From NCBI GenBank assembly GCA_030704615.1, contig CM060733.1:6076001-6140000 (forward strand): a DNA stretch of 64,000 nt, given 5' to 3'. Shown here piece by piece: positions 18,106 to 41,829 of this stretch. The DNA is from Takakia lepidozioides (taxonomy: Eukaryota; Plantae; Bryophyta). The notes under the pieces are model-generated. The model had not been told where the DNA came from and ran no database searches. It saw only the letters and a program-made list of their open reading frames with translations. The position numbers and the translations under genes are program-made. The stretch's first letter is position 1, and each line of letters begins with the position of its first letter.

Positions 18106-19399
18106 TGAAGCAGCAGCATCCAACAAAGTAGACTATAGATGTAGAAAGTCAAAAACTCCGAGCAAATCCGAGTAAGTCCTAGCATATGCTAAATGATCGC
18201 AAAGGCTGAAGCAGGATAGACATGAAACAGTTCTATAGTCTAGTATGTTGTAAGATCTAGGTCATCTACACACAGCAGAGGGCGCTCTCGCTTGAGTGCT
18301 CCTACCATAGCTTCAAATTTAAAGAGAGAAAATGATTTGCAACTAGAGAAGAAGAGGCATAGCAAGAGAAAATAAAGGAGTTTGAGATAAACATAATTTC
18401 ATCTTTATACCTTCATAGGGAGTAGTTATCAATGACCTAAATGAAAGACCTTTATAAAAAAAAAAACTGTAAGTAAAAGACCTAAATGAACATGTTTTTT
18501 TGTGACGTCCTTTCATATGGGGTAATTATGAATGACCTACATGAAAGACCTAAAAATGAAAGACCTACAAATAAAAGATCTAAATGCTTGTAACGTCTTT
18601 TCATAAAACTAATGCTCAAATTCTACCAAAGCGAATAAATATTCGGGGCGTGCAAAGGTTCGATCCCAGAACATCAAGTCCATGCCAATTATTAAGCATC
18701 GTGGAATACTAAAGTCTATATATCAGAAGTTTTGTTCCACTAATTTTTTTCATGAAACTAATGCTTATTTGACCCAGAATCATCTAGATGACACATATTG
18801 TATTAACTTGTGGAGGTATATCCTCCAAATTCGGGTGTAGGTACCTCTAAATGGGTGTTTTCTAGTGTAGGTGTTTTCTGGTGCAAGTATTATCTAGTGC
18901 AGGTATTATCTGGTGTAGGTACATCAGGATCTTGGCTCTTTTCAGCACTGATGCGTGGTCTCCTCTTGAGAGAGGAGCCAATAAAAACCCTTGGGTGCCC
19001 GAAGGCTGCCATAAGGCATGTTCACACGGAGGCCATGCTGGATAATTCATGAACTATGGCACTATGAAGAAAAAACCATATGAGCAGGCTCATGGAATGA
19101 GCCTCATTGCCTCTGCAACCTCAAAATAGCGAGCCAATGCCATAACAAATATGAATCGATGCAGTCAAGCCCAGAGGGCCCTAGTCCTTGAGTACTCCTA
19201 CCCTGAGATGTTGCCCGAATGAAACTAGCAAACACTATGGCCTAGAACAAGAACCAATGAAGTAACTAGAAGAATTAAGGAGAAGAAGAAGGTGAGGTGA
19301 GGAGGGAAAGTGGGAGGGGAGGGGAGGGGGAAAGCCCTACGGGGACCCTCCTCTGAAGACTGAAAATGAGGCCTTTCTACGAGGAAGAGCTTGCCCCCC

Positions 19400-20930
19400 A
19401 TATAAAGCTCCCCCTACATCTTTTGACTTCGTTGATGAACTTAGAGTCAGGGCCCCAGGAAGAGGCAAAGTACTAAATGCCCGCCATGAGTATCTGGTTG
19501 GCGGTCAAGGCTCTTGATCCAGTGATGGATAGGTGGAGAGATCCCCAGTAGGCCAGCTACCTTTTGAGAGTTTAAATAGTAGCGCCCATACGCTAGTCTT
19601 CGGTAGGGTTGATGCCAAAGGTATGCCCAAGCAGCATGGTGGGCTCACCTTCTTTCAGCCAAACTAAGCCAAGGTGATCCCCCCAGGTGGGAACCAGTCC
19701 TCCTACTATGGAGGATTTGGAGGTATCTCCCAGTCCAGCAGGGCCTTGGTTTTGGACCAGTTGACTCTAAATCCACATACGTCACAAAATTGCAGGAAAG
19801 TCTCTTCGGCTGCAGTCAGGATAGAGGGGGTTGCCTCCAAAAGCAGGAAAGTGTCATCAACAATCATTGAGTCCTTGACTTGACGCCATAGCTAGGTTCT
19901 AGGATTCTGAAGCTTCAAGCCTTTCACCCTACAGTTATCCTCCAGCATGTAACCCAGGGCATCTGCCACAAATAGGAAAAGGAGATGGGCTAGAGGGCAC
20001 CCTTGCGCCCTAACGGACCTCTAAAGCGGGAATGGCTTGGAAAGATTCCCGTTGATGGTAACCTTGCTTGTGGCACCGTTCAGCAGAATAGTAACCCATT
20101 GGCAGAAACCCGGAGACAGCCCAGCTTTTTGAAGCACTGCAAGGAGAAAGGTCCAGTCTACCCTGTCAAATGTCTTCTCAAAGTCAAGAAGCCAGAGAGC
20201 CAGGGCTTGACCTGACTTGGTGGTGAAGGAGGAAGCTTCTTGGGCAAGGAGAACATTGTCCAAGATAGACCTTCCTTTGATGAAACCCGTTTGTCCAATC
20301 CTGATCATTGTAGGGAGCAGAGATTGGATGCGAAGAGCAAAGGTCTTTAGCGATGATAGGCTACGTTACGGAATGTGATCGGTCTGTAATTGCCTATAGA
20401 AGCCTTGTCCCCTTTCTTGAAGAGCAGGATTATGACCCCTTGGGTCATAGACTCCGGCATTTGCCCTCTGGCTTTAATCCCCTTTGCCATTTTGAAGAAA
20501 TCATCAGCTATGGTGGACCATATGGCCTTGTAGACTTCCACAGGCATCTCATCAATCCCTGGAGCCTCGTTGTTACTCATGTGGTTGAGAACCTCTTCAG
20601 CTCGAGTGCAGTAAAATCAGCATCCAGGGTCAAGGAGTCAACTGGAAGAAGCTTTTGCGGGAAGGATTGAAGGCAATCCCTTAGGTGGATATGGTAGTGA
20701 GGGTCCTTGGGGACAGTCTGGAATAGCGATGAGAAGTGGTGAAATGCAGAATTGCACATCTCTCTGGGGTTGGAGGATTTGAGTCCTTGAGCATTTGAGT
20801 ATAGTTCAGAGATGGATTGGGTAGCCCTTTGCAACTTCATTTTTTGACAGAAGTATTTAGACATCTTCTCACCTTTAGTAGAACAGTTGATGCCCGCGTG
20901 AAGCTTCATTTTGTTTTTTAGAAGGAGATT
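19400..20930 (-). mobile_element. Degenerate L1-clade LINE, ORF2 reverse-transcriptase region
   Basis: APGIDEMPVEVYK, IILLFKKGDKASIGNYRPIT, QTGFIKGRSILDNVLLAQE, LDFEKTFDRVDW, then RQGCPLA..LF and a degenerate (F/Y)ADD. Broken by frameshifts and stops. Confidence 0.92.
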
Positions 20931-20993
20931 GTAACTGTCGAGGTAGGTAGCTCCTCTTCATGTTGGAAAAATGTTATGTATGAGAATTTATTA

Positions 20994-21110
20994 TAGGGTA
21001 ATGCCCTGAGTGGAGGGCATTACCCGATTTAAGGGCTTGACGCCAAGGACGGTAGCCCGAGGGTAAGGCCCAAAAATCCGGGAATGCCCCACACAAGGGG
21101 CATTACCCTG
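20994..21110. repeat. Short GC-rich inverted-repeat cluster (possible DNA-transposon end)
   Basis: gggtaatgccct-gagtgg-agggcattaccc forms a 12-bp stem, followed by a related gggaatgcccc...ggggcattaccc. Confidence 0.5.
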
Positions 21111-22097
21111 CGTAAAGAAATGCCATTTAAAAATAAATAAAAATATCTAATGGCCGGTGCATCTGCATTTCGGAATGCACTTGAGGGAGGAGATGGGTGC
21201 ATTCCCGCCAGGTGGAATGGTGGAATAAACCCCGATGAATTTTACTTTTTTAACGGCACAATAAATACAAACAAATGTTTTTGGCAGTGCTTTACGTGTT
21301 GATGAGATATTGTGCTAGCCCCTAAAGGATGGCGCGACCCAATCGGATCGCGTTGCCACAATATAGCTTTCATGGATGACAGTGGATGGTAATGGACCCT
21401 AAAGATAATTTGTACAGGTTTTGGTGGAGCACATGTGGGAATTTACAGTGCTCTAAAATAATAAAAGCTATACTCCCTAGAAATTTCCAAAGTGCCAGGG
21501 CCAGAAATCCGTTGTCCACCACCATTGACCTGCGCATTTGGTAGGCCAAATGGGCAATCTAGTAACTAACATCTAGGGCTGAAAAGTTTCAAAGTTATCA
21601 AAGTTTTGGACAACGCATTATGTAACAATTTGTCCCCAAGATCTCACATACAAAGCACCGTGATTTTTGGGGGAGGCACTCCTTTAGGTGCCATATAATC
21701 AGATTATGGAGGGCATGTGTTTGGGAAAATTCAATTTGATACTTGAATTTTATTTCATGCAATTTTGGAATACATCTACATATTGGGACAAATAAATTTT
21801 TATATACTCTCCCAAATGCAATAGTAAAATTGTCTACATTTTTTAGAGGAAGTGGATGTAATAGATATGCACATAAGTACAAGGTTCATCCATATGGATG
21901 ATTAGGATTAAAAAGTTACACCTTCATCCATGACGCTATGCACTTTTTTTTAGTAGGCCCACCAAAGCTAGTAAGGAGTATAATTAGGCAGCAATATCTG
22001 CTAATATGCAATTGCTGAGCATTCATCAAACAAAGGTTGTCTTTGATTTGTAAAAGCCTTATATTACTCACAAGGTCCCCAAACCTTTGGAGATAAT

Positions 22098-22235
22098 CAA
22101 GATGTAGCCCAATGGTAATGGGCACAAACCATCTCAAAAGTGGTTGCGGATTCAATCCACTGATGGTTGTCACAAAAGTGTCCGCCTACTTGCTGGAAGC
22201 TAATATCCCTTGGGGACACAATTTTTTTTTTATTG
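22098..22235 (+). mobile_element. tRNA-derived SINE (family 1)
   Basis: A-box-like tagcccaatggtaa, B-box-like ggattcaatcc and a T-rich tail. Homologous to copies at 22301, 37964 and 59931. Confidence 0.65.
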
Positions 22236-22300
22236 CTTCCTTGTAAAGGCGTAATTAATTTTTTTTTAATTTTTTTTCTTACTCTTAATTTGATTGGCAC

Positions 22301-22356
22301 CAAGTTGTAACCGAGTGGTAATGGGCACATACCACGTCAGAAGTGCCTATGGGTTC
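22301..22356 (+). mobile_element. 5' half of a family-1 SINE, cut at its B-box by an LTR
   Basis: caagttgtaaccgagtggtaatgggcacatacc...tatgggttc aligns with the 22098 and 59931 copies, then switches to TGTCA at 22357. Confidence 0.65.
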
Positions 22357-25260
22357 TGTCATGGTTTTAGTCATGGTTGTCTAGAATTACCTACTTCTAG
22401 TTAACTAGGACATTTTAGATATTTATATTTATATTTTGTGTGTTGGGACTTCATTTGGTCTCACATGTCAAGTGAGGTGTCGAGCCTCACTTGAGACATG
22501 GAGATAGGTTTTCCCCTTGTGAGTGTTGAGGAGGCTCATCTTCTTGTAGTTGAGCCTCCATGAGCTTCTCTCACCTCCATAGCTCTAGGTATTGAGAGAG
22601 AGTGTGTTGAGGGCTTTGTAGGGTGGATTCCTTTAACAAAGGTGCCCTTGGCTTGACTTAGTTTATGTGATAGAGTGGATTTCACTTGGAAGGACTAGGG
22701 CTTGTTCTTCATGTGATTGCTTCATGCTTTGAGAGCTTTCATTGTCTTATACTTCTCTCATTTCTCATCTCTTATCACTACAAGAAGATCACCTTATGCT
22801 TGTGAGTGCGGAGTGTAAGGATTAGTTTTGCACTTGTATTTTAAAGAGGTTGAGAGCTAGGAGAATTTAGCTCTTATATCACAAGGTTTGCAAAGGGTTG
22901 CAAGGAAAGGTGCTCGAGTATTGCATGCACCAAGGAGTTGGAGAGCTTGAGAAGAAAGCTCTTGAGTCACAAGATTTTGCAAGGATTGTAAGGAGGAAGT
23001 CTTGTGTTTGTGGAAGCATGGATTCTAGGGTTTGAGAATCATTTGTATGCGTTATGGAGTCGATGGTGTGCGCCATGGTTTGTGGAGAGTGACTAAAGGT
23101 GCATGTGTGGAGCATGCTCGCTTGAGTTTGTAAGTTCAAGTTTGAGAAGGGAAGCTCTTGAACTAGCAAGAGGTGAAGGCCTTTGAGATCCATTTGTGTG
23201 TGAAGTGGAGAGGTGTTGATTCATGTTATGATGAAGGAGAGCAACACATAGGCCAAGAGGTCATGAAACATGCATTCAAATGACCACGGGGAGCACATGG
23301 ATGATGGATTGGTGCAAGACCCCAAATGAGGCATATGGCGTGAGAGTGGGATCCAAGGCGGATTGCTTGGGAGCATTATTGTAAGTGACAAGCATTGCTC
23401 CTACACATTGAGATAATTTGTGTTGATTTGGAGCAATTGTCAAGTGATGAGGAGACAAATGCATGATTGCTCGGCAATTGAGATATGGTAGTTTGCAATC
23501 AAATCCCAAGGACTAGAAGGGGGATTGATTTGGTGGACAATGACTTGCAAGTTGAGTTGGACCACTCTTGGTTGCATATTGGGGTAGAAGAGAGCAAGAA
23601 GATGCCTCTTATGACCACCTAGAGACCATATTTTTGCTTGAGTAGAAGCATAGAAGTCAAGGACTTGCATTCTAGCTCTTCATTACAAACCCTAGTAGTG
23701 TATGCTCAGACTATACCTCTGTTAGTATACCAAACAGGATCTTGTCCCTTTGACTATACCTCGGTCTGGAAAGTTTGAAGGTCCCACATGGATGGAACTG
23801 CGGCACCGCATTTCCGTCCCACAGCTCCAGGCCTCATATACAAAACGAAAATGCGGTGCCGCATTTCCGTTCTGGAATGTTGGAAGGTGCGACTCGGACG
23901 GAAATGCGGTGCCGCATTTCAGTTCCAATGGTTCACGATTTTCAGTCACAACGGAAATGCGGTACCGCATTTCCGTTCTAGAGAGTATGAAGGTCTCAAA
24001 TGGACGGAAATGCGGTGCAAAATTTTCGTCCCTCCGCTCCATGCCTGAGATAGAAAACGGAAATACGGCGCCGCATACCATATGTGAACCCTAATGTGAG
24101 ACTATACCTCTGTTAGTATACCAAACATGAGCTTGTCCATTTTACTATACCTCTATTGAGGTATCACCATATGTGAACCCTAATCAGCTCAGACTATACC
24201 TCTGTTAGTATACCAAACAGGAGCTTGTCCCTTTTACTATACCTCTATTGAGGTATCACCATATGTGGACCCTAATCAGCTCAGATTATACCTCTGTTAG
24301 TATACCAAACAGAACCCTCATTTTCAGACTATACCTCTGTAAAGGTATCATCAACATAAGGGACCCTAGCAACCTCAGACTATACCTCTGTTAAGGTATC
24401 AACAGTGAAAGGACTTAGTGAAATTTAAGGGCCTTTGGAGGATTGTTTGGAAGATATTTGAGGGCCCTTGGAGGAGTATTTGGAGGATCTTTGGGGTCCT
24501 TGGAGGAGTGTTTGGAGTATCTTTGGGGTCCTTGGAGGACCCTTCGAGGAGCTTTGGTGGACAATGTTGAAGAGCTCTTGAAGGATTGATTGAGGGATAC
24601 TGAAGGATACTTGCCACGGCCATACAAGCGAGTGGATAGAGACAGGAGGAAGAGTGGTGGGATGAGAGCATTCTGGGGTTAGGAATTGCTTTAGTTTCTC
24701 TTCTCCATAGTCTTTCACCCTCTCTGTAGGCCAAAACCTTTCCGTAGGTGGAGGCAAGAGTCAGTCCGGGTTTGGGCTGGGGTGTCCTTGCAGGAGCGAC
24801 ACTGTGAAGTGTTTTTGGTGTGGGGGAGTTGCTGTCTTGATTTTCTTATGTTTGGATCCCCTCCACACCTGCATGCTTGACTGTGCGCCATGTTAGCTTT
24901 GTGTGGGCGCTTGTTTTCATAGGAGGTTGGTCCGGATTGGAAATGCGGTACCGCATTTCCGTTCCACCTTCACATACCTTAGTTGATGAACAGAAATGTC
25001 GTGCCACATTTCCGTTCGGGAAAGTATAAAGTCTCACCTGAATGGAGATGCGGTATGTCGGAAGGTGCGACTTGGCCAATCCTAGAGTATGTTGTCGGTG
25101 GTGAGGCTGGAGTGATGACCAGCAAGACCACCAGTGTTTCTTCTATGGTGAGGCTGGGTTGATGACCAGCAGACCATAGGAGTGCTTGCGGTGGATGCAG
25201 GTGCAGGTACAGGTCTACGTTAGAAACCTATTATTCGTGCTTGAACTAGTAGCCGCAACA
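22357..25260 (+). mobile_element. LTR-like region upstream of the gag gene (probably composite)
   Basis: Starts TGTCA and shares blocks (ggaggctcatctt, ttggcttgactt, ttatcact.caaga.agatca, gcatgtgtggagcatg) with the minus-strand LTR at 35605-37963. Contains internal tandem repeats. The tentative end is ...gccgcaACA at 25260. It lacks the sequence that starts the 3' LTR at 32808. Confidence 0.6.
23700..24400. repeat. Tandem repeats ctcagactatacctctgttagtataccaaacag, interrupted by a palindrome array with 53-bp period (23793-24080)
   Basis: ctatacctct-based units of ~45 and ~92 bp. The near-perfect palindrome cggaaatgcggt(a/g)ccgcatttccg starts at 23793, 23846, 23899, 23952, 24005 and 24058, with further copies near 24938, 24991 and 25043. 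Confidence 0.92.
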
Positions 25261-25343
25261 GGTTCTTTACCCGGTTACCTTGTAGAAAGTGGGGATTAGA
25301 GACAGGTTGACAACCGGTTGGGTTGTGAGTTTTCATCACGGAG

Positions 25344-26800
25344 ATGCCACCAGCTGCTGAGGGGAGTGCCGGTACAAGCACCAGCGATACTAGTGGGTAC
25401 ACAAAACAAGGTGTGCGGTTTAGGCCACTTTCACCTTCAGTGTCTTCTGAGGAAGGTTCAGACTCGGAGTCAGGAGGATTCTCGCCGAGGGTGCAAGTCA
25501 TTTCCGTGCCATTATTGTGGGACACGATGGAGGAGATGTATGGAGCTACCAAGGGGCCACGTAGGTACTCTGGAGCTGTGGGCACCATCGAGCTTGATAA
25601 CCTTTTACAAGAGTTTGACAGTTGGTGCGATTTGCAGCAAATGCGCAATCCACAACTGTTTACGCCCTTTATGGCGTGGAAGGGGCTATTCCAGCACCTT
25701 GAGGGGCCGCCCATGGATGATTACCATGAATTTAGGCGGGGACATACGGTGGAGATTGAAGAGTGGCGAGAGTATTGGTCACCTAACTATGTCTCAATCA
25801 CTAGAGGCACAAGGGCAGCGGTGACACCAGCAACTACACAAACATCTCCAACTACAAGCACTAGTAGTGGAACAAGTAGTGCCGGTACTTCTGCAGGTGG
25901 TACCAGTTCAAAAGGTGCTACTACTTCTCCTGCCACAATTACAACACATGTGCCTAGATTCAACCCGGTGGTGGAGTTCTTCCAGGAGTTGCGGAGGAAC
26001 TACCAAGGTGTACGGACAGAGAAGCTGCGAAGTTTGCAAGACTTCCAGCGCAAATCCAGTGAGAGCTTGCGAGAGGCCTACACTCGTATGAGGCGCTTGA
26101 TAAGTGTGACCCAAGGGGTTACTGAAGCTCAGGCAGTCCAGTTCTGGTATGGAATTTTGGACAAGGAGCTCAAGAGAAGGGTACGGGATGCAACCCTGTT
26201 ACAAGCGGCCCAACCCACATTAGCGGATGTGTTTTTGTTGGTTGAGCGGATTGAGCTCAACATGGTGGAGGAGCGAGTTGTTACCATTGGATTTGACAAG
26301 GACATGCCTGCACGAGGTGCAGCTGCCAGTCAACAGGTACAAGGGACTGCCCAACAGCGTGGTCAGGGGATCTAAGGTTGCCCAACCCAAGTTCCATGGA
26401 GCTTACAGGGGACCTCAGGTGCAAAGGCCCGTGGCATCTTTTGCAGGCCAACAGCAACCAGAGGTGATATGTTGGACATGTGGAGGACCTCATGTCAAGA
26501 GAGATTGCCCAGAGAGTGGCAGAAGGCCGGCACAAGCACAGCCTGCACAGTTGCAGTGTGGGCATTGTGACAAGTATGGGCATGGAGATGCCCAGTGTTA
26601 TGACTTGCACCCTGAGTTGCGCCCAGGCCAGTTCCAAAAGAACAATGGTGGCCGGGGGCGAGGTGGACCAGCCCAGAGAGGACGAGGTGGTCGGGCACGA
26701 GGTGCAGGCCAAGGGCAAGCTCAACATGGCCAAGGACGCGGAGGTCAGGGTGTTGACCAAGACATGGCCAACCGGCTTCAGCAGCTAGAGCAGAGGCTCG
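25344..26800 (+). pseudogene. gag: Gag (capsid-like domain, two zinc knuckles, RGG-rich tract)
   Basis: Gag signature LQDFQRKSSESLREAYTRMRRL...FWYGILDKELKRRV. After a frameshift near 26370 come CWTCGGPHVKRDC, CGHCDKYGHGDAQC and GGRGRGG repeats. Confidence 0.88.
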
Positions 26801-27519
26801 CTGCCATGGCTACAGCTCAGGTGGTACCGGCTCCCAGGCGGGATGGTCCACCTCCTGCTCGTGAGGGAGGAGATATGGGAGGCATGGGATTCATGTGCGG
26901 AGCAGCACTACCACTAGTGCATGTGGAGTCTGCTGCAGCCGTAACTCAAGGAGTAGCACGAGTTCCTGAGCCACGAGGTGCAGAGGTGGAATTGGAACCA
27001 CATCGTGGGGAGGCAAGCCATCAGGCGAGGCTTCCTCAGTCATTCACATTGGCGGAGACAGTGTCGACGCCATCCATGGCACCTCGCCCGACTGTTACCG
27101 AGGCGGAGGTCACTATGTCATTGGGGAGAGCTACACGTGCAGCACTGACACCTGCTACCAAGGCTAGTGCAGCCGGTGTGTTATTGGGGGCAGCCACCTC
27201 TGTGTGTCAAGCCCCACTGTTCTCGGCAAGCATGATTGCGACGCTGGGGGTAAGACCGGCTGCAGTGTTCAGACTAGCAGCAACACTCTACGAGAGTGGG
27301 GAGATCACTTCATCTTCTGCGGAGTTACTGGAAGGTGTAGTGGCAGAGGGATCCTCGGATTTGAGGGTCAAGACTGCCACGGCTGCGCCATGGCAAGCTG
27401 CAGCTACCAGGTTGACGGAGCTGCCAGCTAGGCCAACCTTTGAGCGCGCCATGGTGACACCTGGAGTTGTCTTGTTAGACAACCAGGGAGGCATTTTCAC
27501 TTTGAGTGGACCGGCAGAC

Positions 27520-27830
27520 AAGAAGTACCGGCCACTGCGGGTCTTGTTGGACTTAGGAGCTCAGCCACTGATGTTGGGCAGAGCTGCTATTGCAGGTTTG
27601 GGCCTCATGGAGGCGGATATGGAGCCTTGTCCTTTCCAGATACAGACATCTCTGGGAGGATCAGAGCAGGCTCGGGGCATGACACGGCGTGAGTTGGCCA
27701 TTGGACTATAACCAGATCATCCTGTAGATGGCTCAGTGATGCGAGCCAAGGCCATTGTGACAGACGCGGTCTCTTACGATGTCCTTGTTGGTGGGGCAGT
27801 GTTATATCCCATGGGCTTCACCCTGGACTT
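27520..27830 (+). pseudogene. Retroviral-type aspartic protease
   Basis: RVLLDLGAQ (DSG expected; GAC TTA GGA is one C>T change from DSG) and downstream YDVLVG. In-frame TAA at 27709-27711. Confidence 0.75.
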
Positions 27831-28264
27831 TTGGGAGGAGTCAGCATCCTATAGGCCTGGATGGCAGTCAGGGGATGGTCATCGTGCACAGCTCCCTGTG
27901 GACATTCATTGGGGGTATTGCGGCTGCCCAGCGGGGCAAGATGCCAACACTAGCCGCCTTTACAGCTGCAGTTAGTTGGCCTAGAGAGTTGCTGGAAGGC
28001 AATGCCCATGCAGAGGATGTGCCACCTCCAGCAGAGCAGGATGACATGCATGGTATGGCGGAGTTGCCTGCCATGGTTGCTCACACTCCATTATGGGGTA
28101 CGAGCAAGGATTTGCAGCAGGCTGCTGATGGACGGGTACAACAAGCCTGGGTAGAGGCCTTCGTACCGTCAGGAGAAGAGGAGAGTGTGGTGATTGCACC
28201 AGGACCACCTCAGTTGTCGCCATTGGACACCACACCTCTTGTGTGGCAGTGCCCGGATGAAGAC

Positions 28265-29130
28265 ATATGCCTTCTGGACTTGTTTGGCGGGATCAGCACT
28301 GGATTGGCTGCAGTACTGCAGGCAGGTGTACGAGTTCAACGTTACCTGTATGTGGAGAGGGATGAGACTTCACGACGCGTCTCACTGCGCCATGTTGCTC
28401 AGTTGGTACAGCAGTACCCTGATTTGTTGCCAGTGTCTGCAGTTTGTGGATACCAACAAGCCTTACCAGCAGACATTTCATTGCTGGGGGTGCAGGATTT
28501 GGAGCGGGTTGGCTCCATTGATCTGGTAGTGGCAGGTTGGCCCTGCCAAGGGCATTTATCAGCCGGGCATGGCAATGGATTGCGAGACTCGAGGACGGGT
28601 CTGTTTTGGGAGATGGTGCGAATTTTGCGCCACTTGCAGCTTCATCAAGCTGTATCTCCAGCATACATCTTGGAGAATGTGCCACTGATGGGTGATTCTC
28701 GGGCCAGGCTGATGGCCAGTGTGCATCAAGTCCGGTCGTGGCTTGGGTCAGCAGTGTTGCTGGATGCAGCTGCAGTGGGGTCATGGGCTCATCGTCCACG
28801 GCTATGGTGGACTAACTTCATGCCACCCGCACTGCTCAAGCGTGCATTTGATGGGGTGCAGCGGGTAGCACACCTCACAGTAGATAGCATTTTGGACACA
28901 GGGAGGCAGTCTCAACGTGTGAGACATGATGACCGTTTGTCTTTGGCAGTGGTCAACAGGGTGGATCAACCACGAGCAACATTACCTACACTGCTTAGCT
29001 TCCCGGGATCCCATGCTTTTCGGGATGGTGGACCTGGCCTCTTGTGGGATAGTCAATTGCAACAATTAGTGGAGCCCGTCGTCAGGTGTTGGGGCAAGCA
29101 ATGGATCTCAATTGCTTGACCTGGATTATC
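28265..29130 (+). pseudogene. C5-cytosine DNA methyltransferase domain embedded in Pol
   Basis: Motif I LLDLFGGISTG, II YLYVERD, III ADI, IV DLVVAGWPCQG (PCQ at 28541-28549), V GLRDSRTGLFWE, VI ILENV (28673), VIII AHRPRLWWTN, and X RRQVLGQAMDL in the next frame (from ~29077). Motif IX is missing at the frameshift. Confidence 0.93.
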
Positions 29131-29565
29131 AGCTTGGCTATGGCTGAGCAGCGCAGAGTACGGAGTACACTTCCCTTCATGGTCTCCCTGCCTACCGAGA
29201 TGGTACAGGCAGCGAGTGGGGGCGAGCAGGTGAGGACCACGAGGTGCAGGCCGCATCCATGGCACACGTGGGAGGTGCTCGAGGTTCAGAAGGAGTTGGC
29301 AGCCAAGGCGGCGGTGATGGATCAGGTTGGGGATTTTTCTCAGATTGAGGAGGTCCTCAAGGATGGGATGATGGGGCAGGATGAGACATTGTCACTGACA
29401 GAGGAGGTAGTGGTCACTGCTCAAGAGGTTGCAGCATAGCAACCACGGGACGCGTCTTCTACCTCTAAGCCTGCTGGACTCAAGGTTGCAGTCACGGAGG
29501 ACAATTGGGAGCCTGATGTTGGACCTATAGTCACCGGAGGATAGAGACGACGTATACGGCGATTT

Positions 29566-30935
29566 TTGAGGGCTTACAGGAACTGCTTTGCCTTCAGTTT
29601 GAAGGACTTAGGAGCACTGAAGGGTCAAGAGATTCGCATTGAATTGGCTACTGACACGCCAATCTTTCGGAGACCCTATAGATATAGTGACATGGAGAGG
29701 TCCTTGATTCAGATGAGAACTCATGACCTTTGGGAGGCTGGTTTGGTGGAGCTATCTGGGGGAGAGTATGCTTCAGCCACAGTGATGCCAACCAAGAATG
29801 ATGTCTTTGGCAATTGGATGGAGAGACGTATGTGCGGTGATTACCGGCCTGTAAATCGTCAGACCAAGTCCGATAGGTATGCCATGCCAACACCAGAGGA
29901 GATCTTTGATGCCATTGGGCATGCCAAGGTCTTTAGCACGTTGGATTTACGATCCGGATATCACCAGTTGCCGATCAAGGAGGCGGATAAGCAAAAGACA
30001 GCATTCTGGGGGATCAATGAGCACGGGAAAGATTGCCTATACCAATGGCGATTCTTACCATTTGGGCTTAAGAACGCTCCGGCAGAGTTTCAGAGAGTCA
30101 TGGACAGGATTCTAGCAGGGGTGGGGAGTTGCTCGGTGCTACATAGATGACATCATCATCTTTAGTGCTACGGTGGAAAAGCATGAGAGACACCTTCAAG
30201 GGGTATTTGAGCGCTTGAGGGCGCACGGATTGAAGTTACATCCGGGAAAGTGCAAGTTTTTCCACAACCAGATTAAGTATCTGGGTCACATGATATATCC
30301 TGGAGGATTGGGGGTACAGCAGACTAAGGTAGAGTCCATTGCACAGGTTCCACACCCCACGGATGTGAGCCGAGTTCGAGCTTTCATGGGGTTGGCAATT
30401 TATTATAGACGGTTTGTTAAGGGATTTAGTGCCATTGCAAAGGCTCTAACCAAGCTGACCAAGGTGGACCAGGAGTGGCAGTGGGAAGATGAACAAGAAC
30501 AAGCTTTTCAAGAGCTCAAGGCGAGGTTGACCTCCGCGCCCATCTTGAGACGACCTATCAGGGGGTGTCCTTTTCAGCTGCATACAGATTGGAACATGCT
30601 GGGGCTTGGAGCGGTGCTCACACAGGTGGATGATGAGGGAAGAGAGTTCGTAGTGGCTTATGCTAGCCGCTCGAACAACGTTGCAGAGTCTAAGTATAGC
30701 TCATATGAGGGAGAATGCTTAGCTGCAGTGTGGGCCGTGGCACACTTCAGGTGCTATCTATACGGCAATCTCTTCACCCTTGTCACGGATCACCAACCAC
30801 TCAAGTGGATGATAGAGTCAGACAAGCTTACGGGGAAGCTTGCACGGTGGGCACTCATCCTTCAAGAGTATGACTTTCAGGTGGTGCATCGACCGGGTTT
30901 GGTCAATCGCAATGCAGATGGGTTGAGTCGCAATC
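29566..30935 (+). pseudogene. pol: Reverse transcriptase and RNase H
   Basis: RMCGDYRPVN, FSTLDLRSGYHQ, PFGLKNAPAEFQR, frameshift near 30125, YIDD at ~30140, YLGH. RNase H motifs LHTDW, ECLAAVWA, TDHQPL and NADGLSR. Confidence 0.96.
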
Positions 30936-31279
30936 CATGCACGAGCCAGCAGGATGACACTGGAGCTCGGTGGCATGGTGAGACGGACGAGGAGATGGTG
31001 CCCGGATGGCATGCATCTGCATTTCTGTGTATCTTGGCAGCGGAAGGCCAGGTTGGACCTGCAACAGGGATGACTGTAGATCAAGTGTCCAAGGACCCTG
31101 AGGCCAGCAATGAGCAAGGTGGCTCCAAAGATATACATGAGGATTCAGTTGTGTTGGACTACCTCCGCACTGGAGACACTCCAGCCACTGTGACTGCCAA
31201 GGAGAGGGATCGGATCCTACAACGAGCCAAGAGGTTCAAGTGGGAGGATGGTCGAGTGAGGATTGTGCCTCACCCAACA

Positions 31280-32550
31280 CAGCGGGCACGGTTAGTGCGG
31301 CATGCCCATGAGGAGTTGGGGCATTTTGGGGTGCGACGCACTCATAGTCTACTGCAGGGGCAGTATTGGTGGCGTGGTATGCACACAGAGGTGCAACAAT
31401 TTGTGGCTAGGTGCATGGTGTGTGTGACAGGGTGCGTGCTTCATTCAACGCCCCTACTCCACAATTGCACCCTCTTCCGATCATGGGATTGGGCTACAGG
31501 TGGAGTCTTGACTTCGCAGGGCCGTTGCCACTGACCATGCGCCACAACAAGTACGTGTTGGTGATGGTAGAGCACTTCTCCAAGTGGATTGAATTGGTTC
31601 CATTGCCTGATAAGGCTAGTGAGAGAGCTGCGTATGCATTCTTGGATTGTGTGCTTAGCCGATTCGGTGCTCCAGCTGAGGTACTCACGGACCAAGGGAG
31701 AGAGTTCTTGGGGGAGTTTCAGGCTTTGTATGACAAGGCCTTAATAGACCACCGCACCACTTCTCGGGATCATCCTGAGGCCAATGGCTTGGCAGAGAGA
31801 GTTGTTCAGACAGTAAAGAGGGGTTTGCGCAAGTATGGCTTGCAGAAGGGACACCTAGGAGATTGGGACCTTCAGTTACCCTGGTTAGCCATGGGCTACA
31901 GGTTCAGCAAGCAAACATCACTTGCCTCCTTCTCACCATACTTTCTTCTCTTTGGCCGAGAGCCGGATTTGCCTACATCCATTCGCAGAGAAGCTGCTAC
32001 AGTTCTTAACCTTGACGATCCGGACGTATGGGCACGTGCATGTGAGCAGCGTGCAGAGTTGTTCAAGAAAGTCATGCCCATGGCTTTCGAGAACCTTGCC
32101 ATTGCACAACATCGTGATACGTTGAGGTATGCTACCATACGTGGTGGGGGCTATCGTCCTGGGGTTCGGAGATTCAACCCTGGTGACTATGTTTATCTGC
32201 AGCAGACTGCTCCTATGACCTTGGATGTGACTGCAGGACGTACTATTTTGAGGGTTCGAGAGGTGTTGCCCTCAGGAGTCATGATCTTGGAGGGTCGGGA
32301 TGGCATGATTTGGAAGGACCATGTGCGTAATTGCGCGCCATGTCACCTTCCAAATGTTGATGGAATGGTTGACCCAAACCTGGCAGTGGTACCTGCAAGT
32401 TTGAGGTGCATGTTGTGTGGGTCTGCTAGAAAGGTAGCCACCATGCTGGTGTGTGATCAATGCTCTAGAGGTTGGCATATGGGATGCTTGACTCCACCTC
32501 TTGAGATGGTTCCTGATGGGGATTGGTTATGTCCGCATTGTATTGGATAG
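31280..32550 (+). pseudogene. Integrase with C-terminal PHD finger
   Basis: HHCC zinc domain HEELGH...CMVC (frameshift in a gt run near 31420); catalytic WSLDF, TDQG and AERVVQ. The C-terminus CMLC..VCDQCSRGWHMGCLTPPLEMVPDGDWLCPHC (32407-32541) is a C4HC3 PHD. Confidence 0.95.
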
Positions 32551-32796
32551 TGGGAGTAGATACAACCATGGAAGGCTAACAAGAAATGCAAGGCCAAGCT
32601 ACTAGGAGACCAACACACGAGATCCTGACTCAAGTTCACAGATTGCAAGACGACAACTAACGATGGGGTTGCTCTTGTACCCGGCCTCTTGGTCTATAGA
32701 GTTTGAGTACAATAGGGACAGTGATAGAGGACTTAGTACGGCTGTGGCTATTACATCTTGTAGCTATCTAGAGTTAGAGGGACCTAACCACCAGCT

Positions 32797-32806
32797 AGGG
32801 GGGCGA
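32797..32806 (+). promoter_or_regulatory. Polypurine tract
   Basis: aggggggcga immediately before TGTGG, ~250 bp after the integrase stop. Confidence 0.75.
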
Positions 32807-33190
32807 TTGTGGTATAGCTTTCTAGGATTGTGTGCTTAGATTGTGTGGTGGACAGCGATGTATGTTGTGGCACGATGCTTAGGTGCACGACAGCATTGTG
32901 GTATAGCTTTCTAGGATTGTGTGCTTAGATTGTGTGGTGGACAGCGATGTATGTTGTGGCACGATGCTTAGGTGCACGACAGTTCAATCCACCAATTGGT
33001 CTCATAAACTGTGTCGTGCGCATACATATCGCTACACAACTACATCGTTGTCCAAAACCACACAACACATGTGCACACCACACACTAGTATACCACTAGT
33101 CCAGCCACTAGTCTAACCACTAGGCTGCCACTAATCAGTCACTAGGCTGCCACTATGCTGTCCACTATGGCAGTCACTAATCCACCACAA
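32807..33190. repeat. Start of the 3' LTR duplicated in tandem (89-bp period), then an inverted related copy and an 11-12 bp ccacta minisatellite
   Basis: 32807-32893 is identical to 32896-32982. 33009-33097 is an imperfect reverse complement of it. ccactag..-type units run from ~33094 to 33181. Confidence 0.85.
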
Positions 33191-33339
33191 TGCATTGTGC
33201 CAGACAGATCAATCGGAGGTCAATGGAAAAGGGGGCCATACCCAAACCACCTTATGGAATTACACAGGTTGACAAATCCTGAATCATGTCACCTTCCATT
33301 TGTTGCATATGCATTAATGAGGTGGATTCGATGCAACGT

Positions 33340-34889
33340 ATGTGTGTAATTCACTAATTGTTGGGAGGGGGGGGTGCATAGGTATCGTGGGATGCACTGA
33401 TTGGGGGAGAGATTGATGCCGCAAACAAGGCCAAATTTGACTGGGCATGCGAAGCAACAACAGTCCGCCTTGACAAGCACGAATCCACACACAAGTGGGG
33501 CGCCGGCAGATCCAACGGTTATATCTTGCGATTAGTAAGTCGTACTTCCCTATGGATTTTGTTATGTCTTCTTTCTTGCTCCATCATCGCGAAGAACTGA
33601 CTTTAATTTGTGGCATGTGTAGCAACGCGCGTTTGAGAGGAAGCCATCTTCGGTAGAGTACAACTATGCCAATGAGCATGGTTGGCAATCCCTCATGAAG
33701 AACATGGCCAACACGGAGGGGATGAGTGCACTACAGTGCACTAGTATGGATGAGGTCGGGGGTCATGGCCAGGGATTGGATGTGAACTTTGTGGGACTTA
33801 GGGGAGCGCCGCCTCATTTAGGTGCTCTGGCAAAGGACGCGGAGTCATCAAACTCATTGGATAGCTCTGAGTCCTCCACTGAGGATGAGGATGAGGATGA
33901 GTAGTCATAGTCCATGTAGGTCCCAGGGTCAGCCTACTGAACCCTTGTGAGTTTTTCAGCTCATTTCCTGTAAATATATTTCCATCTTTTCATCTTCCAT
34001 CTTATTCATGTGTCGCACCGTTCTTACCCTCGATTCATGCTTGCTCAATTGTGTACCTGCTAGATCAGCGATATGGAACTGTAAGGTCTCATATCCCCAA
34101 AAACAAAACCAGGCAAAAAACAAAAAACCACCCCCAATTCACCCCCAAAATCAACCCCCAACACCCCCCCCCCCCCCCACCACCACCAGGCTGCCCTCGC
34201 GACTGCATGATGTCGCCAATGGCGACGTGCTTTTTGGGCGGGGGTCGCAAGCTGCGACGGTCGGACATCGCAAAACCCATTTGCGGGCGGCAACGCCCGA
34301 CACCCCCTACGACGTGTTTTTTTGGTTCGGGGGTCGCAAGCCGCGACGCCCTGGCATCGCGGAGCCCGCCACCCTGCCTGCGTCACGTTTTTTTTTTTTT
34401 TGATTAAATATAAAAAAAAACAACGCCAGAGCGTCGCGAAAACCCACGCCCGGGCGTGGCGGAGCCCGACTCTTGCTCCTGCTGTTTTTTTTTGCCTCGC
34501 CCAATAGTCGTTTGGCGTACCACCCCCTTACGCCACGTGTTTTGGGTTTTAGGATGGGACTCGAAAAAAAAGGGGATGCGACGCCGCGCTGGCGCCCCCA
34601 CCAATGCCATCGGCTGGAGGGCCGCGACGGCGAGATGTCGCTCGAAGGAGGCCCCTGCCATCGGCGCGGACGGCATGAAAAGCGACGTCCGGCAGTCGCG
34701 GGAGTTGGGGCGGGGGCTTGCGACCCCCATACGTCGCATTTTTGCGACGCCATTTTGGCGACGCCCATGCGACTGCCGGACGACTGTCGGGCGACGCAAA
34801 TTCTGCGCCTGCCCCCTGCTCAAAATCGGCGTTTTCCCGACGTTGCGGCGTGGCTCGAGCGTCGCAAAGGCCCCCCTTTTCCTGTAGTG
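33340..34889. mobile_element. One end of a CACTA/EnSpm DNA transposon inserted in a gag gene
   Basis: Terminus ...ccccttttcctgtagtg (CACTACAGGAAAAGGGG on the minus strand) at 34889. Dense direct and inverted gcgacg subterminal repeats at 34190-34870. Two exon-like segments (+) end in an acidic tail SSTEDEDEDE* at 33904. Other TIR not found. Confidence 0.85.
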
Positions 34890-37800
34890 TTCGATCGACA
34901 ACACATTGAAAGCCTGAACATATCCCCGAATGTCATCCGTTTGCTTCAAATTCCTCATCTTGTCTCGGGCAAGCCAGGATGCGTTGAGGGGCACAAACTG
35001 TCTTTTCATAAGTTCTTTGAACCTACTCCAGCTCAAGGTTTTTGGGTTTGGACCTTGGTCATGAAGGCGTTTCTGCCACCATTGTTGGGCATAGCCCCTC
35101 AAATAGGTGGGAGCCACTTCCACCCGATCTTCATTACTCAACTTGGCCGCCCAGAAGTACTGCTCTAGCTCCAAGAGCCAGGTGTTGAGTGCCTTCCGAT
35201 TTCAGACGCCCTCGAAGGTGCCGGGTTCCTTAGGCTTCACCTTAAACTTTGCATTAGTGGAAGTGGCAGTAGCCGCCATCAATACGTCTTTCAACGTCCC
35301 GCCAATCTGCGCCAACAACCCTTCCCAAAAGGTTGCTGGCATGGGAGACATCTGTTGGTATGGCGGAGCCTTTGGGAAGTCCTCGGGCTCCGACTCCCAA
35401 AATTCCTCCCGTTCTTGAGCGGCCTCGCTTTCAGAAGCATGAATCGTCTCTTCCAAGTGCCGCTTCGGTGACACATCGCCCCCACCGGGCTCACCAGGAT
35501 CATCATCTTTCGGGCCGTTCCGCTTTCGCTTTGTCTTGCCCGACCCCATGATGAGGCCGATCTCAAGCATGATCGCGTACTGAACTCTAAGCTCTGATAC
35601 CAAGTGTCGTGCACCTCCCTTCGGTAAGCTCCCCTTCACGTCATAGTTACTCGCTTTGATGCGCGCGCCTAACTCCCAAACTGGCTGCCGGGCCAACTCG
35701 GAGCTTCGGCTGCTCACGGGACATAACGGTCCCCCTTTGCTCCTCCACAAGACCCTCGCTCACTTTGGGCCTAGTGGAAATTCCCTTTGGTTGTTGGCAG
35801 TCCGGAACAGCTCCCCACACCTTGGTCGCTTTCCGGCTCGCACGCTTACTCACTAGTTTTTGGTCACCAACGGGCTTGCACCGTTCTTGGGGTTACTACT
35901 CCCTATACATACTTCTTTGACTGTCCACGGGGGTTTCACAAACAACACCGTCCTTTTATGACAAACCACCACGAAGACCCTTGACTCCCGGTGATGAGTC
36001 GCGGTGAGTCTTGGCCCACCCACCACGGCCCCAATGGACAGTGATGAGTCCCAAGACTCCCCACGACTTCCACCACAAGGTCTCCGCCCCATGGTGAGTC
36101 CTATCCACCCCCACTAAGATCCACTAAGCTACCACCACCTCTCATGGAACCACCCCCACCGCAACTCGGTGTGCGGGGTTCCACCTAGTGAGCGCCTTCG
36201 CCTCCTTGAGTGCCTTGGGCACTCAAGCGTGCTTCAGCCCCGTACCTATTGTTGCCATTGCCCCCACCACAGGGGCAGCCCCTCTTGTGTCCCGACCCCC
36301 TTGCCCTCAAGGCAAAGGGCCGCGACATGCTTGCAACCAAAACTAAGTGCACAAGCTTCCCTTTAACTCCCAAAACATCGCCATTGATCCCTATGGCGAC
36401 TAGCCAAACATGGCTGACTTCCAGCCCTAGTAGGTAGTCATTCACGCACTTTCCTTGACCATAGCATGCCCCTTCGCACCTAATCCAGCTCCTGCACATG
36501 CTGCTTCAAGAGTCGTGCTCTATCTAGGCTTGAAGTTGAAACCCCAACTCAAAACATGCTCTACAAGTGCTTTTCTTTCACCCAAGTGGAAACCAGCCCT
36601 AGCCCTTCCATTCTAGCCTCTAAAGCTTGAAAACAAAAGCCTCAATGGACTGAAGACATGCTCCACACATGCCCCACTCTCACCATAAGAGAATCAGCCT
36701 CTTTGCTTCCTTTCATGCACCCACAAACCTGAAAATACAAGCCTTCAACGGGCTGAAAGCATGCTCCACACGTGCCTTACAGGGAAACCAGTCCCTTCCT
36801 TCCTTTCTTGCACTCCCAAATAACAAGCCTTCAACGGGCTGAAAACATGCTCCACACATGCATTGCCCTCACATAAGGGAAATCAGCCCTTCCCTCTTCA
36901 TTGCTTGCCCTCCAAGCTTGAAGATGAAAGCTTCAATGGGCTGAATGCATGCTCCATACATGCAACCCCTTTACACAAGAGGTATCAGCCCCCTATCTTG
37001 GCTCCTTGGCTCGTTGATGCTCTCTAAAACAAGACTAAGCAATCTATAGCCTTTGCCAAGCTCCTGCAACCCTAAGGTTTACATTTCCAGCCACAAGACA
37101 CTCCCCTTGTGATGCATGAGCTCCTCTTCCAAGCTTTGAAACCCTAGGCACATTCCATGGCCTTGCCGCACCTCTTAGCTCCTGTTCCAGCCCTATTCTT
37201 GCCATGGCAAGAGCCCTTATATTGCTGGAGTTTCAGATTGAAACTTCCAACTCAACATAGCCACAAATGCATTGGCTTGCATACAAGGAAAACTAGCCCT
37301 CTCTCTTCACTTCTACCTCCTCATGAGCTTGAAGTTGGAGCTCCCAATAGCTGCGACTTGCATCTAACACCTTCGCAGCTCCACACTCACCACACGTGGT
37401 TGCCACAACATTGAGCTATGCAACACCGCTCTTCACCATAGGCTGCCCGCCTCTATATCCATTGCAAACCTGAAACCTGTTCGCCTTCACACCCTATCCG
37501 CTTTGGATAGGCTCATGCAATGATCCCTGCTCTTCTCAAGATCTGCAAAGCAGTTGCTTCTCATCTGAAAACACACAAGTGCTAACAACTAACTCGTATC
37601 TAGCACTCACAGATACGAGCTGATCTTTCTTGAGTGATAAAGAAGAAGAATACAATCATAAGCTCATGCGAGCTCACAAAGCTGAAGCATAAACTCATGT
37701 ATATATAAACTCATCACTCAAATACAAGTCAAGCCAAATGCACCCCACGCCATGGGATTCCACACTACGGCGCCATAGCTAGGCGTGGTGAGGCTCATCA

Positions 37801-38079: not shown

Positions 38080-41000
38080 GTTTTTTATTTTTATTTTTTT
38101 TAAGAGAACAGGGGGCAGTGGCCCCAGAAAATTTATTAAAGTAAGTAAAAAATATTCTTACAGAAGGCCATGAAGGCAGTAGAGAGAGGTTCCACTCCGA
38201 GCCAACAGTGCAAACAAATAGAGTAAGAAAAGAAGGAGCTAAGGCAGAGCTGAGATGCAGATACAAGGCACTACTGCACTAGTGCTAGCCTGCAAAACAC
38301 AGAGAAAGGCAAGATGGAGCAGAACTGCAGAATCAAAGCACTACAACACTAATGCTAGCCTACAAAACAAAGAGAATGACAAGGTGGGGCTGTAATGCAG
38401 AAACAGACACTACTGCATTAGTGCAAGCCTACAAAACAGATAGAAAAGACATGGAACAAATTCCTAAGAAGAGCCTAAGAGCACTGAAACTACATGTTGT
38501 TTCTCTTCTTTTTGGGGGCCTCAAAAGACAATTGAGTCTTGGACTTCGCTTTCGTAAGCCTCTGCTTGTGCCTCCAATTGACCTGTGCTTCTTCCGCATC
38601 CAAATTAAAGGAGAATGCCTAGTACTGACAAAGCTACCAGTAGGTAGGGATGTCTTCTTGCCACACAATTTGAGACTCTATAATTCTCCTGCAGAAGAAA
38701 CCACCTTTACCCCAAGAGCTGTCGAAGGTTGCGAGGAGCTGAGTCTTTCTCCTATTTCCACATTTGGCAATAGCTGTCACAAGAACACACCAGGACTTAC
38801 GAGCTTCAGACTTTAAGTCTGAGTGAGGTAAGAACAAAACCTTTTGCAGACAGGGCAGTGCATTCTGGAACACAATTGAACACCTTATTTTCCATATATG
38901 CCAGAGAACAATGCCTCTGAGGGACTCCCAAAAAGGACAGGAACATAACACGCCCCCATCCTTAATATTGAGAAGAAGAGTAGAAGCAGAATAGATAAGA
39001 TCTTTGTCTCCAGAAAACATAGAGAAAAGTAGCACGGGCCCAAACAGCGGCAGCAAAGGGACAAGCTGAAATAAGGCAGTGCTCTAGACCTCCGGAGAGT
39101 TCATACTGCACGTAAGACAAAGAGAGGTAGGGTCAAAGATGTAGCTTCCAACAGGAAGAATTCTGTTAGCAACCCTCCATAGAAAAGATGAAATCTTTGC
39201 AGACCTGTGCTTATTCCAAATATCTGTCCAAACCAGATTCCAAGGAGCAGAATGCCCCAAAAGGTGAGCCCATTTTTTGGTCCATTTCCCAAGTCAAAGG
39301 TATGTTTAGGCATCAACAAAGAGTTGCCCAGCTTTACCGAATAGGAAAAAAAAAATTGTCATGCTTTTTGGGCATCCACCGCCATTCACCGGGATCGAAT
39401 TGAAGGAATCTCACCGGAGTAGAGAGAAACCAATAGAAGGAATTGTTGTAATGCTAAAGCTCAACAGGAGGGGACGGGTTTATTTACCAAAGGTGGAACA
39501 TAGAACTCTGATATCGTACCAGTCAGTATTGACAAGAAGATGAGCTTCTTGGGGGCAGGTCAAGATGTCGTTTCCTTGCATACTCAAAGTTGTACCCCTG
39601 AAGTGGTCTCTGGCCAAGGCTGTAGCATACATGACCTTTGGGCCAGCCCCAGAGGAAAACCCCAGCCATCTAGGAAGTTTCAGGTGTTGACGATTGAAGA
39701 AAAGGTGTAACCACTCTAGGGAAGGCTACCCATGATGGTATCCCACCCTAAGGCTACCCTTCTGGAGGAAAAACCAACTACAGCAACATCAGAGAAATTG
39801 CAGAGCCTGAATCTACATCCCAAAAATGTAGAAGATGAGACAGACCTGCATGCTCCCACTGAAGACCATCTTTTAGAGCAATGGACAAGGTCTTCTAAAT
39901 CTCAGTTGTAATATTTACTAAACAACGGCTGTCTGATAACTTCATCAAATGTAGAAGGCATCGTTTGAACAAGGAAACCCCTCAACTTCCACCAAACCGA
40001 CCAAATAGTTTGCCAAGCTTTTGACCCAACTCCAGGGTTAACATTCGTGGAACCACCTTGCATGGCCCACTTGAGGGAAGCAAGCCACAAGGGGCTTGTT
40101 TTTGGAGTTGCTGCAGTGATATGGTGCCTAACTAATCTACTCTAGGGATTCTCAAGGAGGGTGAAGACCCTTGGCACCTATTTCGCTAACAGATCCACAA
40201 TCTGGGATTGTGGGTCAAGAACTCCAAGGCCTCCATGTTTCTTCTTTGACACGTTTGCACCCAGCTGACAAGAGTCCTTTTATTTGCAAATGCTGAAGTA
40301 ACACCCCAAATGAAGTTGCGAACCATCGATTTAATCTTGATGATGGAAGTCTCCGGAGACCAGACCAAAGCAATGAACCATGTTGAGGTAAGAATGATTT
40401 GATTGGCTACTAGTGCTCTGCCTAACACAGTTAAATGAAGTGAACTCCAATATGCAAGCTTTTGCTTCAACCTAGAAAGAACATCCGCAAAGCAACACTC
40501 ATCAGTAAGGCCATGGCCAATCTGATGACCTAATGACTCATGCATCTGCCCATCACATAGCCATTTAAGCCCCAAATCCTCACCCCAAGGGTCACAGTGA
40601 GATGATCTGGAACCCGCTGGTAGGATGCTCTAAAGCCCCACAGACTTCTCCCAGTTAATCTTCAAACCAGAAGCTTCACAAAAACACATGGGTGGAAGAA
40701 CTAAGTAGTATCATCAGCATATAGGGATGATCTGATGGAAGAGGAAAGGTTCAATGATGGGGAGTGGGGGATAATAAGACCTAGTGAGTCATTCCTTATA
40801 TCCATGAGGTGACCCAATCCATCAGCTGCAATGAGAAAAAGGAACGGGGCTAAGGGGCAGCCTTGTCTAAGAAAATTTGAAGAGAAGAAATGATTTTGAA
40901 ATAGCACCATTAATTATCTTCACTCTACTTGATGCAGATGAGAGAAGGATACCAATCCAAGACAGGAAATTGCCGATAACACCCGCGGCTTCCAAAGCTC

Positions 41001-41590: not shown

Positions 41591-41594
41591 AGCG

Positions 41595-41783: not shown

Positions 41784-41829
<46 letters not shown>

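Follow-up and report, generated by a model that had tools for sequence, protein, structure and literature searches.

A split-repeat Gypsy-type retrotransposon of Takakia lepidozioides with a DNMT3-like methyltransferase domain ahead of a conserved stop codon

Does a Gypsy-type retrotransposon of a land plant carry a cytosine methyltransferase of its own, and how would such an enzyme be produced and used? The question is raised by a 64,000-nt stretch of the Takakia lepidozioides genome (CM060733.1, 6,076,001-6,140,000; hereafter the window, in whose numbering all element positions are given). A preliminary description of this stretch had recognized a Gypsy element at 25344..32982 with a C5 cytosine methyltransferase (DNMT) domain inside Pol, between the protease and the reverse transcriptase (RT), and had considered either a link to the retrotransposon methyltransferases of de Mendoza (2018) or an independent family. 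The best known counterpart is KnitGypsy-Dnmt3 of Klebsormidium nitens (PMC5890265; statements on this and the other cited papers refer to the portions available to us). The element in the window belongs to a family in which the DNMT domain is an integral component and is followed by a conserved stop codon, a feature that bears on the abundance of the enzyme.

The methyltransferase domain, an integral part of the family

The DNMT3-like domain occupies positions 28256..29250 of the + strand, and the frame at 27761-29116 matches PF00145 with an E value of 1.5e-10 and 41.4 bits against a cut-off of 22. A single intron-free frame from 28256 encodes motifs I (LFGGI), IV (GWPCQ, cysteine at 28544), VI (ENV, 28673), and VIII (HRPRLWW), and motifs I-VIII are intact. 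Approximately 76 nt are missing at 29077, as indicated by the alignment and by a public-run contig and loose contig ends; this loss takes out motif IX, which is present in relatives, and shifts motif X into the next frame. The preliminary description was thus correct in placing the domain between protease and RT, on the same strand and without introns, and its motif list stands for motifs I, IV, VI, and VIII in one frame, with motif X lying outside that frame. Among solved sequences, the nearest to the window DNMT is DNMT3A (E 5e-9), followed by DNMT3B, DRM2, and M.HhaI, and the predicted structure of the DNMT of L003, a complete natural relative (pLDDT 75.8, pTM 0.80), best matches the DNMT3A fold (E 4.9e-17, TM 0.63/0.75). 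Searches of viral collections yielded one phage DNMT at 34% and none for the related protein P0161, and the ESM Atlas returned generic phage-rich PF00145 clusters and nothing closer.

Relatives were collected with the DNMT domain as the query, yielding P-numbered proteins (73 out of 4218 candidates comparable in length and 36 out of 7996 that were longer), and L-numbered loci were taken from metagenome contigs (of 221 candidate stretches, 127 passed confirmation, and the top 80 were retained; the loci being selected by their DNMT, sister elements without one could not show up). In addition, contigs from four public runs were compared over positions 20500-36000 of the window, and the results given here come from the best supported 40 of 1346 letter differences and 15 of 208 joints. 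Trees were constructed with FastTree for DNMT (171 sequences, 314 columns) and for RT-RNase H (55 sequences, 459 columns), excluding near-identical cluster members and matches of <250 (DNMT) or <330 (RT) residues; a single distant phage sequence roots the DNMT tree, deep nodes and roots are weak, and the trees contain neither host DNMT3 nor Klebsormidium sequences.

A DNMT at the same position is present in dozens of loci as well as in named proteins of Marchantia, Calypogeia, Sphagnum, and Closterium. Its distance after the protease is nearly fixed (367-376 nt in 44 of 62 related loci), the metagenome loci share the domain order of the window element, and a 5009-nt contig with another organism label runs from DNMT through the C-terminal PHD finger. 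The DNMT and RT-RNase H trees broadly agree. These data show that the domain is integral to the family and not a later insertion, as had been proposed. That a host retrocopy was inserted once into this particular Gypsy copy is accordingly of negligible probability, all the more since DUF3444, which is found in host DNMT3, gave no match here.

The domain has been maintained by purifying selection between families: the ratio of nonsynonymous to synonymous substitutions (dN/dS) is 0.12 for L066/L068 (dS 0.25), 0.15 for L066/L070, and 0.12-0.19 in further comparisons between families for which dS is finite, and the catalytic cysteine and the EN motif are kept in all 13 long relatives checked. RT and RNase H have a dN/dS of ~0.05, the DNMT (~0.15) evolving faster. 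This faster evolution, the presence of GWECQ instead of GWPCQ as motif IV in 56 of the best 150 distant relatives, and the inactivity of the Klebsormidium domain in yeast (PMC5890265) would all suit a domain that works on RNA, or that serves in the retrotransposon particle as a non-catalytic nucleic-acid binder. However, the catalytic cysteine, ENV, and RxR are kept, and both sequence and fold are nearest to DNMT3, not DNMT2, so that we regard such a role as very unlikely.

The stop codon between methyltransferase and reverse transcriptase

The DNMT of the window copy is followed by an in-frame TAG CAA CCA (UAG-CARYYA; 29437..29445, +), a context of the readthrough type. The stop was surveyed in 82 sources (81 loci and the window), 53 of which cover both motif X and the start of RT; two rows masked by a further stop in the main tally were taken from a separate alignment. 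A stop is present at the homologous place in all 53 (38 TAG and 15 TAA) and is always followed by CARYY, which across the window follows 20 of 1775 TAA/TAG triplets. Its presence in the host is supported by the window copy, by its absence from the 40 differences described above, and by loci of other hosts. The earlier view, that only decay-type frameshifts and stops separate DNMT from RT and that both belong to Pol, could therefore not be maintained: the pattern indicates that the stop at 29437 is a conserved feature of the family and not a product of decay, and the DNMT consequently belongs to the Gag-protease frame and not to the RT-integrase part of Pol.

The stop and CARYY are common to five lineages, between which the linker protein is just 26-54% identical. 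In the natural open copy L066, a 1369-codon Gag-protease-DNMT frame is followed by one stop and, in the same phase, by a 1047-codon frame for RT, RNase H, integrase, and PHD finger. Long proteins of Marchantia and other organisms end ~80-170 residues past motif X, as would be expected from the same stop, Marchantia being known here from proteins and not from DNA. No AUG is conserved after the stop; the first in-frame Met is found at codon 3, 5, 14, 48, 85, or 117, and in L066 and in the window copy it lies within RT. The stop is likely to be read through, as suggested by its sequence context and by the absence of a conserved start codon. Known readthrough in retroelements is located between gag and pol, other examples being MuLV and the env of Sirevirus. 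Tca2 and VdLTRE5 show the gag-pol placement (PMC3441728). UAG-CARYYA is the type I signal of tobamoviruses, the tobacco mosaic virus (TMV) type (PMC5382211), and UAG, the complete CARYYA, and a downstream frame in the same phase are found in the window, L003, L066, L068, and L070. Unlike the TMV-type case, the stop would here separate Gag-protease-DNMT from RT-RNase H-integrase-PHD in a retrotransposon, at a point past the protease, and the main related family carries CARYYC.

Alternatively, splicing or re-initiation could circumvent the stop. In favour of this are Marchantia gene models lacking the linker and an AUG three codons past the stop in the main related family, but the same frame and CARYY are kept across lineages whose linkers have otherwise diverged, and no AUG is conserved. 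A possibly RNA-derived contig is unspliced across the stop, which is weak evidence, as the contig may be DNA. Taken together, we consider such a bypass unlikely.

In LTR (long terminal repeat) elements, the cDNA is synthesized within a particle assembled from Gag and its fusion partners. The reading that we favour, at slightly better than an even chance, is that in this Gypsy family the DNMT ends the Gag-protease frame before a leaky stop, is packaged at an abundance near that of Gag, and likely methylates the cDNA before integration. Termination after the DNMT would provide each Gag with a protease and a methylase, and low-rate readthrough would supply RT, RNase H, integrase, and the PHD finger. 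The DNMT would be loaded into the particle with Gag, be freed by the protease, and act on the new cDNA in the particle before integration, so that a new copy would arrive methylated and might either evade recognition as naked foreign DNA or throttle its own expression. The nearest solved structures to the PHD finger are those of CHD4, PHF12, KDM5B-PHD1, PHF21A, and ATXR5, whose PHD fingers are readers of unmodified H3 tails, and the PHD finger may steer insertion away from active promoters. The DNMT stays in a packaged polyprotein at both positions that it takes among the relatives, i.e. before RT and between RNase H and integrase. Methylation of cDNA was proposed earlier for DIRS elements, and the SymbioDIRS-Dnmt3 enzymes perform de novo CG methylation (PMC5890265).

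A high predicted dosage would also suit an enzyme with many targets. The Gag-protease-DNMT protein, or the freed domain, might enter the nucleus and methylate, in trans, the integrated copies of the element or its competitors, which would be compatible with the catalytic conservation of the domain, with purifying selection, and with the de novo activity of the host DNMT3 of mosses (PMC6453930). However, the DNMT itself lacks a targeting domain, the PHD finger being part of the integrase product; the methylome of Klebsormidium is not unusual (PMC5890265); and in many relatives the DNMT is at Pol dosage, in a position between RNase H and integrase. Action in trans thus appears to be a minor, though credible, possibility.

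Several observations weigh against methylation of the cDNA by a DNMT made at Gag level. The 53 loci are not independent, ~49 of them belonging to a single family with a DNMT that clusters with Sphagnum-named proteins, and some being the same site assembled twice; the evidence therefore lies in conservation across the five lineages with diverged linkers. In 46 of the 53 loci the context is CARYYC, one base off the TMV consensus, and the third codon is an AUG; the 15 TAA variants are probably the result of decay after insertion. Four Marchantia gene models (P0078, P0082, P0084, and P0086) join the DNMT region to RT and could reflect either prediction artefacts or real splicing. In Closterium and two further elements, DNMT and RT are in one frame without a stop, and a high DNMT dosage is therefore not required in every branch. 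Within the decayed main family, dN/dS is 0.43-0.86. The CpG depletion of the element (observed/expected, 0.28-0.70) is uninformative, as it cannot distinguish self-methylation from methylation by the host. Finally, KnitGypsy-Dnmt3 showed no methylation in yeast, a result that its authors call inconclusive (PMC5890265).

Structure and relatives of the element

The element is larger than the preliminary limits (25344..32982) and extends from 22357 to 32981 on the + strand, where all of its features lie. It starts with TG, ends with CA at 32981, and is flanked by a target-site duplication, GTTC (22353..22356 and 32982..32985). A 5' terminal repeat, A1 (TG...CA; 22357..22777), precedes a long internal region (22778..25343) that contains palindromic repeats as well as tandem units of 92 and 106 nt. 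At the 3' end, a polypurine tract (32797..32805), which is also present ahead of B1 in L016, L028, L061, and L080, is followed by the repeats B1 (32806..32893) and B2 (32895..32981), which are identical, B2 ending with CA. A2, which follows B1 in other family members, is missing here. Joints 32893->22356 and 22775->32894, found in other copies in the public-run contigs, fit split direct repeats of the form A1 ... B1 A2 B2, from which A2 has been lost in the window copy. The A1/B layout of L016, L028, L049, L061, and L080 matches that of the window, and the 3' end in the related family is B-A-B in 5 loci, a shortened B-A in 3, and B alone in 10. An exact 4-bp duplication was identified in 5 of the 7 copies examined (window, L028, L050, L059, and L061), L032 has one mismatch, and L036 was ambiguous. 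At the internal B1/A2 junction, the sequence CA-GC-TG is found in the window's family and in L061 and L016. This resembles an unprocessed end-to-end junction, and we infer that the layout may equal a two-repeat circle opened there. TG...CA ends and a 4-6 bp duplication are in line with Gypsy elements. A canonical LTR pair was not found in the window, and no canonical tRNA primer site was seen after A1; the split repeats and the missing primer site lower the case for a canonical Gypsy element, not the Gypsy-type identity of the enzymes.

The insertion lies within a short tRNA-like (SINE-like; short interspersed nuclear element) interspersed repeat (22301-22356, continuing at 32986), of which uninterrupted paralogues are present at 22091-22211 and 59924-60045, and contigs of one public run span the empty site. 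ARAGORN identified no tRNA gene, and Rfam yielded only hairpin matches below threshold. Many loose contig ends at 33012 mark the edge of another repeat to the right of the element. In the 5' region (23704-24393 and 24931-25054), arrays of a CG-containing palindromic repeat and the 92- and 106-nt tandem units form hairpins, with Rfam matches below threshold; these are possible sites of packaging or of methylase binding.

The remaining coding domains follow the Gypsy Pol order, protease-RT-RNase H-integrase. Gag (25344..26775) contains two zinc-knuckle-like motifs, gives a weak Retrotrans_gag match (PF03732), and is 64-65% identical to Marchantia P0075 and P0076. The aspartic protease region (27400..27900) is broken, with an altered catalytic motif at 27550 (DLG vs DSG/DTG in relatives), a stop at 27709, and a frameshift near 27900; because the window's own protease frames gave no Pfam match, the protease was identified through relatives, which match Asp_protease_2. 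Downstream of the DNMT, RVT_1, RT_RNaseH, Integrase_H2C2, rve, and PHD were identified in this order, corresponding to RT and RNase H (29545..30940; PF00078, PF17917, PF17919), an integrase with an H2C2 zinc domain and an rve core (31130..32340; PF17921, PF00665), and a C-terminal PHD finger with its stop codon (32398..32550; PF00628, E 1.8e-10). In the public-run contigs, other copies largely lack the frameshifts near 26373, 27900, 30128, and 31418 and the stop at 29542. The window copy is dead and cannot make an active enzyme. In one public run, summed contig depth is ~1e6 over the element and 46-72 on unique flanks, which is not a copy number; the contrast points to an abundant family, with coverage of the same order over DNMT and RT.

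Named protein relatives, with up to ~70% identity, are from Marchantia polymorpha, M. paleacea, Calypogeia fissa, and two Sphagnum species, M. polymorpha accounting for 17 of the 36 long proteins (from several assemblies, so that loci may repeat). A wider HMMER search yielded 154 clusters at E <= 1e-30 and 589 at <= 1e-10. Among the best 150, which were classified, the DNMT lies between RNase H and integrase, or immediately ahead of integrase, in 61 and before RT in 4, and 85 were too short or partial to class. Organism names were obtained for 8 of the 20 clusters looked up, namely Scenedesmus (RT-RNase H-DNMT-integrase-PHD), Closterium (6), and Mesostigma. P0202, P0336, P0105, and P0106, which include Pol proteins of Scenedesmus, also have the DNMT between RNase H and integrase. 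No Klebsormidium-named sequence was retrieved in the protein and cluster searches, and the window's kin in the trees include Closterium elements. The window sequence groups with those of Marchantia, Calypogeia, and Sphagnum (support 1.0), and the stop-bearing elements form one RT clade (0.998), whose sister consists of Closterium and the two single-frame elements without the stop (1.0; joint support 0.83). Elements with the DNMT after RNase H form a separate clade (0.92-0.97), with which Mesostigma P0258 is placed although its DNMT follows the protease, a probable misplacement. L080 contains, beside a main-family copy, two heavily decayed DNMT-RT elements (2800-4500, -, and 17200-18700, +), and several ages of the family therefore share one genome. 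The trees suggest that a single ancient capture of the DNMT is likely, and the spread over the green lineage, including the Scenedesmus homologue, points to an old family and not to a capture confined to Klebsormidium.

KnitGypsy-Dnmt3 has been described as an acquisition in the K. nitens lineage (PMC5890265) and has been called "streptophyte Gypsy-DNMT3" (bioRxiv 10.64898/2026.05.21.726589). The window element shares with it the Gypsy domain set, an intronless, unrearranged Dnmt3-like domain in the polyprotein, DIRS-type repeats (here, the joints and the B-A-B 3' end in 5 loci), and purifying selection (Ka/Ks < 0.2; 0.12-0.19 between families here). It differs in its land-plant host, its high-copy family, and the conserved stop, which cuts the DNMT off from the RT frame. 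The window element also has a C-terminal PHD finger; on the stop and the PHD finger, the comparison is with the text of the KnitGypsy-Dnmt3 description. Its relatives reach Closterium, Mesostigma, and, with the DNMT relocated, Scenedesmus. The proposed link to the 2018 elements is correct. The repeat structure, the DNMT3 affinity, and the Closterium and Mesostigma relatives point to the KnitGypsy-Dnmt3 lineage and make an independent family unlikely. Because of the conserved stop, the element is treated as a variant of this kind and not as the same element.

SymbioDIRS-Dnmt3, SymbioLINE-Dnmt, and EpiLTRs also carry a cytosine methyltransferase within Pol, for which methylation of cDNA has been proposed, but they represent other element classes or DNMT clades, the EpiLTR DNMT being sister to DNMT4 (PMC5890265; bioRxiv 10.64898/2026.05.21.726589). 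Compared with these, the window element has a DDE integrase and no tyrosine recombinase, DAM, or chromodomain. Green-lineage Gypsy elements with a PHD finger are known from Chlamydomonas (Gypsy-7a_cRei and REM1), but no DNMT is reported for them in the available text, and Gypsy-7a has ordinary LTRs (bioRxiv 10.1101/2022.06.16.496473).

Elements of the PAT/Ngaro/TOC1 type have split direct repeats, A1 ... B1 A2 B2. The window element shares this layout but has a DDE integrase and a 4-bp target duplication; membership in DIRS, PAT, or Ngaro, which would require a tyrosine recombinase without a DDE integrase, was rejected, as rve is present and the frames scanned gave no recombinase match. Troyka was likewise rejected (CG...CG ends, a 3-bp duplication, and animals only, vs TG...CA and 4 bp here).

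The element thus represents a known, rare kind with three features not found in print. No report of land-plant copies, of the readthrough stop, or of the chlorophyte arrangement was found in the full-text literature searched, subscription papers and Repbase being thinly covered. In the consulted portions of two papers, "streptophytes" alone are mentioned and land-plant copies are not named (bioRxiv 10.64898/2026.05.21.726589; PMC12344493), and Marchantia, Sphagnum, and readthrough are absent from the supplements of PMC5890265 that were searched; the de Mendoza group's tree figures may already contain sequences from Marchantia. More tentatively, and at somewhat less than an even chance, a split-repeat Gypsy may have carried a DNMT3-like enzyme since before the chlorophyte/streptophyte split and moved it between two slots of the polyprotein. 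In land plants, it would use a TMV-type leaky stop to make approximately one methylase per Gag, which would methylate the cDNA before integration, and its repeats would derive from a circle with two repeats that was opened at an attachment site lying within the repeat.

Genomic surroundings and significance

A DUF212 (divergent PAP2) gene with introns is located at 45151-46940 (+; exons near 45151, 45839, and 46359) and contains a long insertion common to mosses. Its protein gave 16 matches, including Ceratodon and, by cluster, Physcomitrium, with no other lineage named. The identity to these two is 51-54%, vs 79% between them, suggesting that the host is likely a moss outside the Ceratodon/Physcomitrium group, which agrees with the land-plant host assumed earlier. 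To the right of the element, the Gag of another abundant retrotransposon (34404-35759, -; PF03732, E 3e-12) is broken up by a GC-rich segment (~34190-34890) without CpG depletion, and LINE-type (long interspersed nuclear element) fragments occupy 38634-43711 (-), with a zf-RVT match at 42250-43203. Positions 1-4400 contain a tandem array of ~700-nt units that are 90-100% alike, with a related stretch near 50500; AT-rich minisatellite arrays are present at 14975-18113; and a 317-codon open frame at 10578-11531 (-) has no Pfam match. Weak matches to a Senescence domain (7861-8316, +) and SNAPC3 (47765-48388, -) are probably host exons or fragments.

The role of retrotransposon-borne methylases has been open since 2018, with examples confined to algae that are hard to manipulate; mosses and liverworts now prove to have the family, and its many Marchantia polymorpha gene models bring the question to a genetic model. 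In bryophyte proteomes, the retrotransposon DNMT domains carry the label of host DNA methyltransferases, which can raise DNMT counts artificially. The conserved stop provides new mechanistic information, as it predicts a methylase at capsid-level abundance, which would fit work inside the particle. The spread over the green lineage turns what appeared to be an oddity of Klebsormidium into an old strategy, seemingly lost in seed plants, none of which were among the named matches of a search that was not exhaustive.

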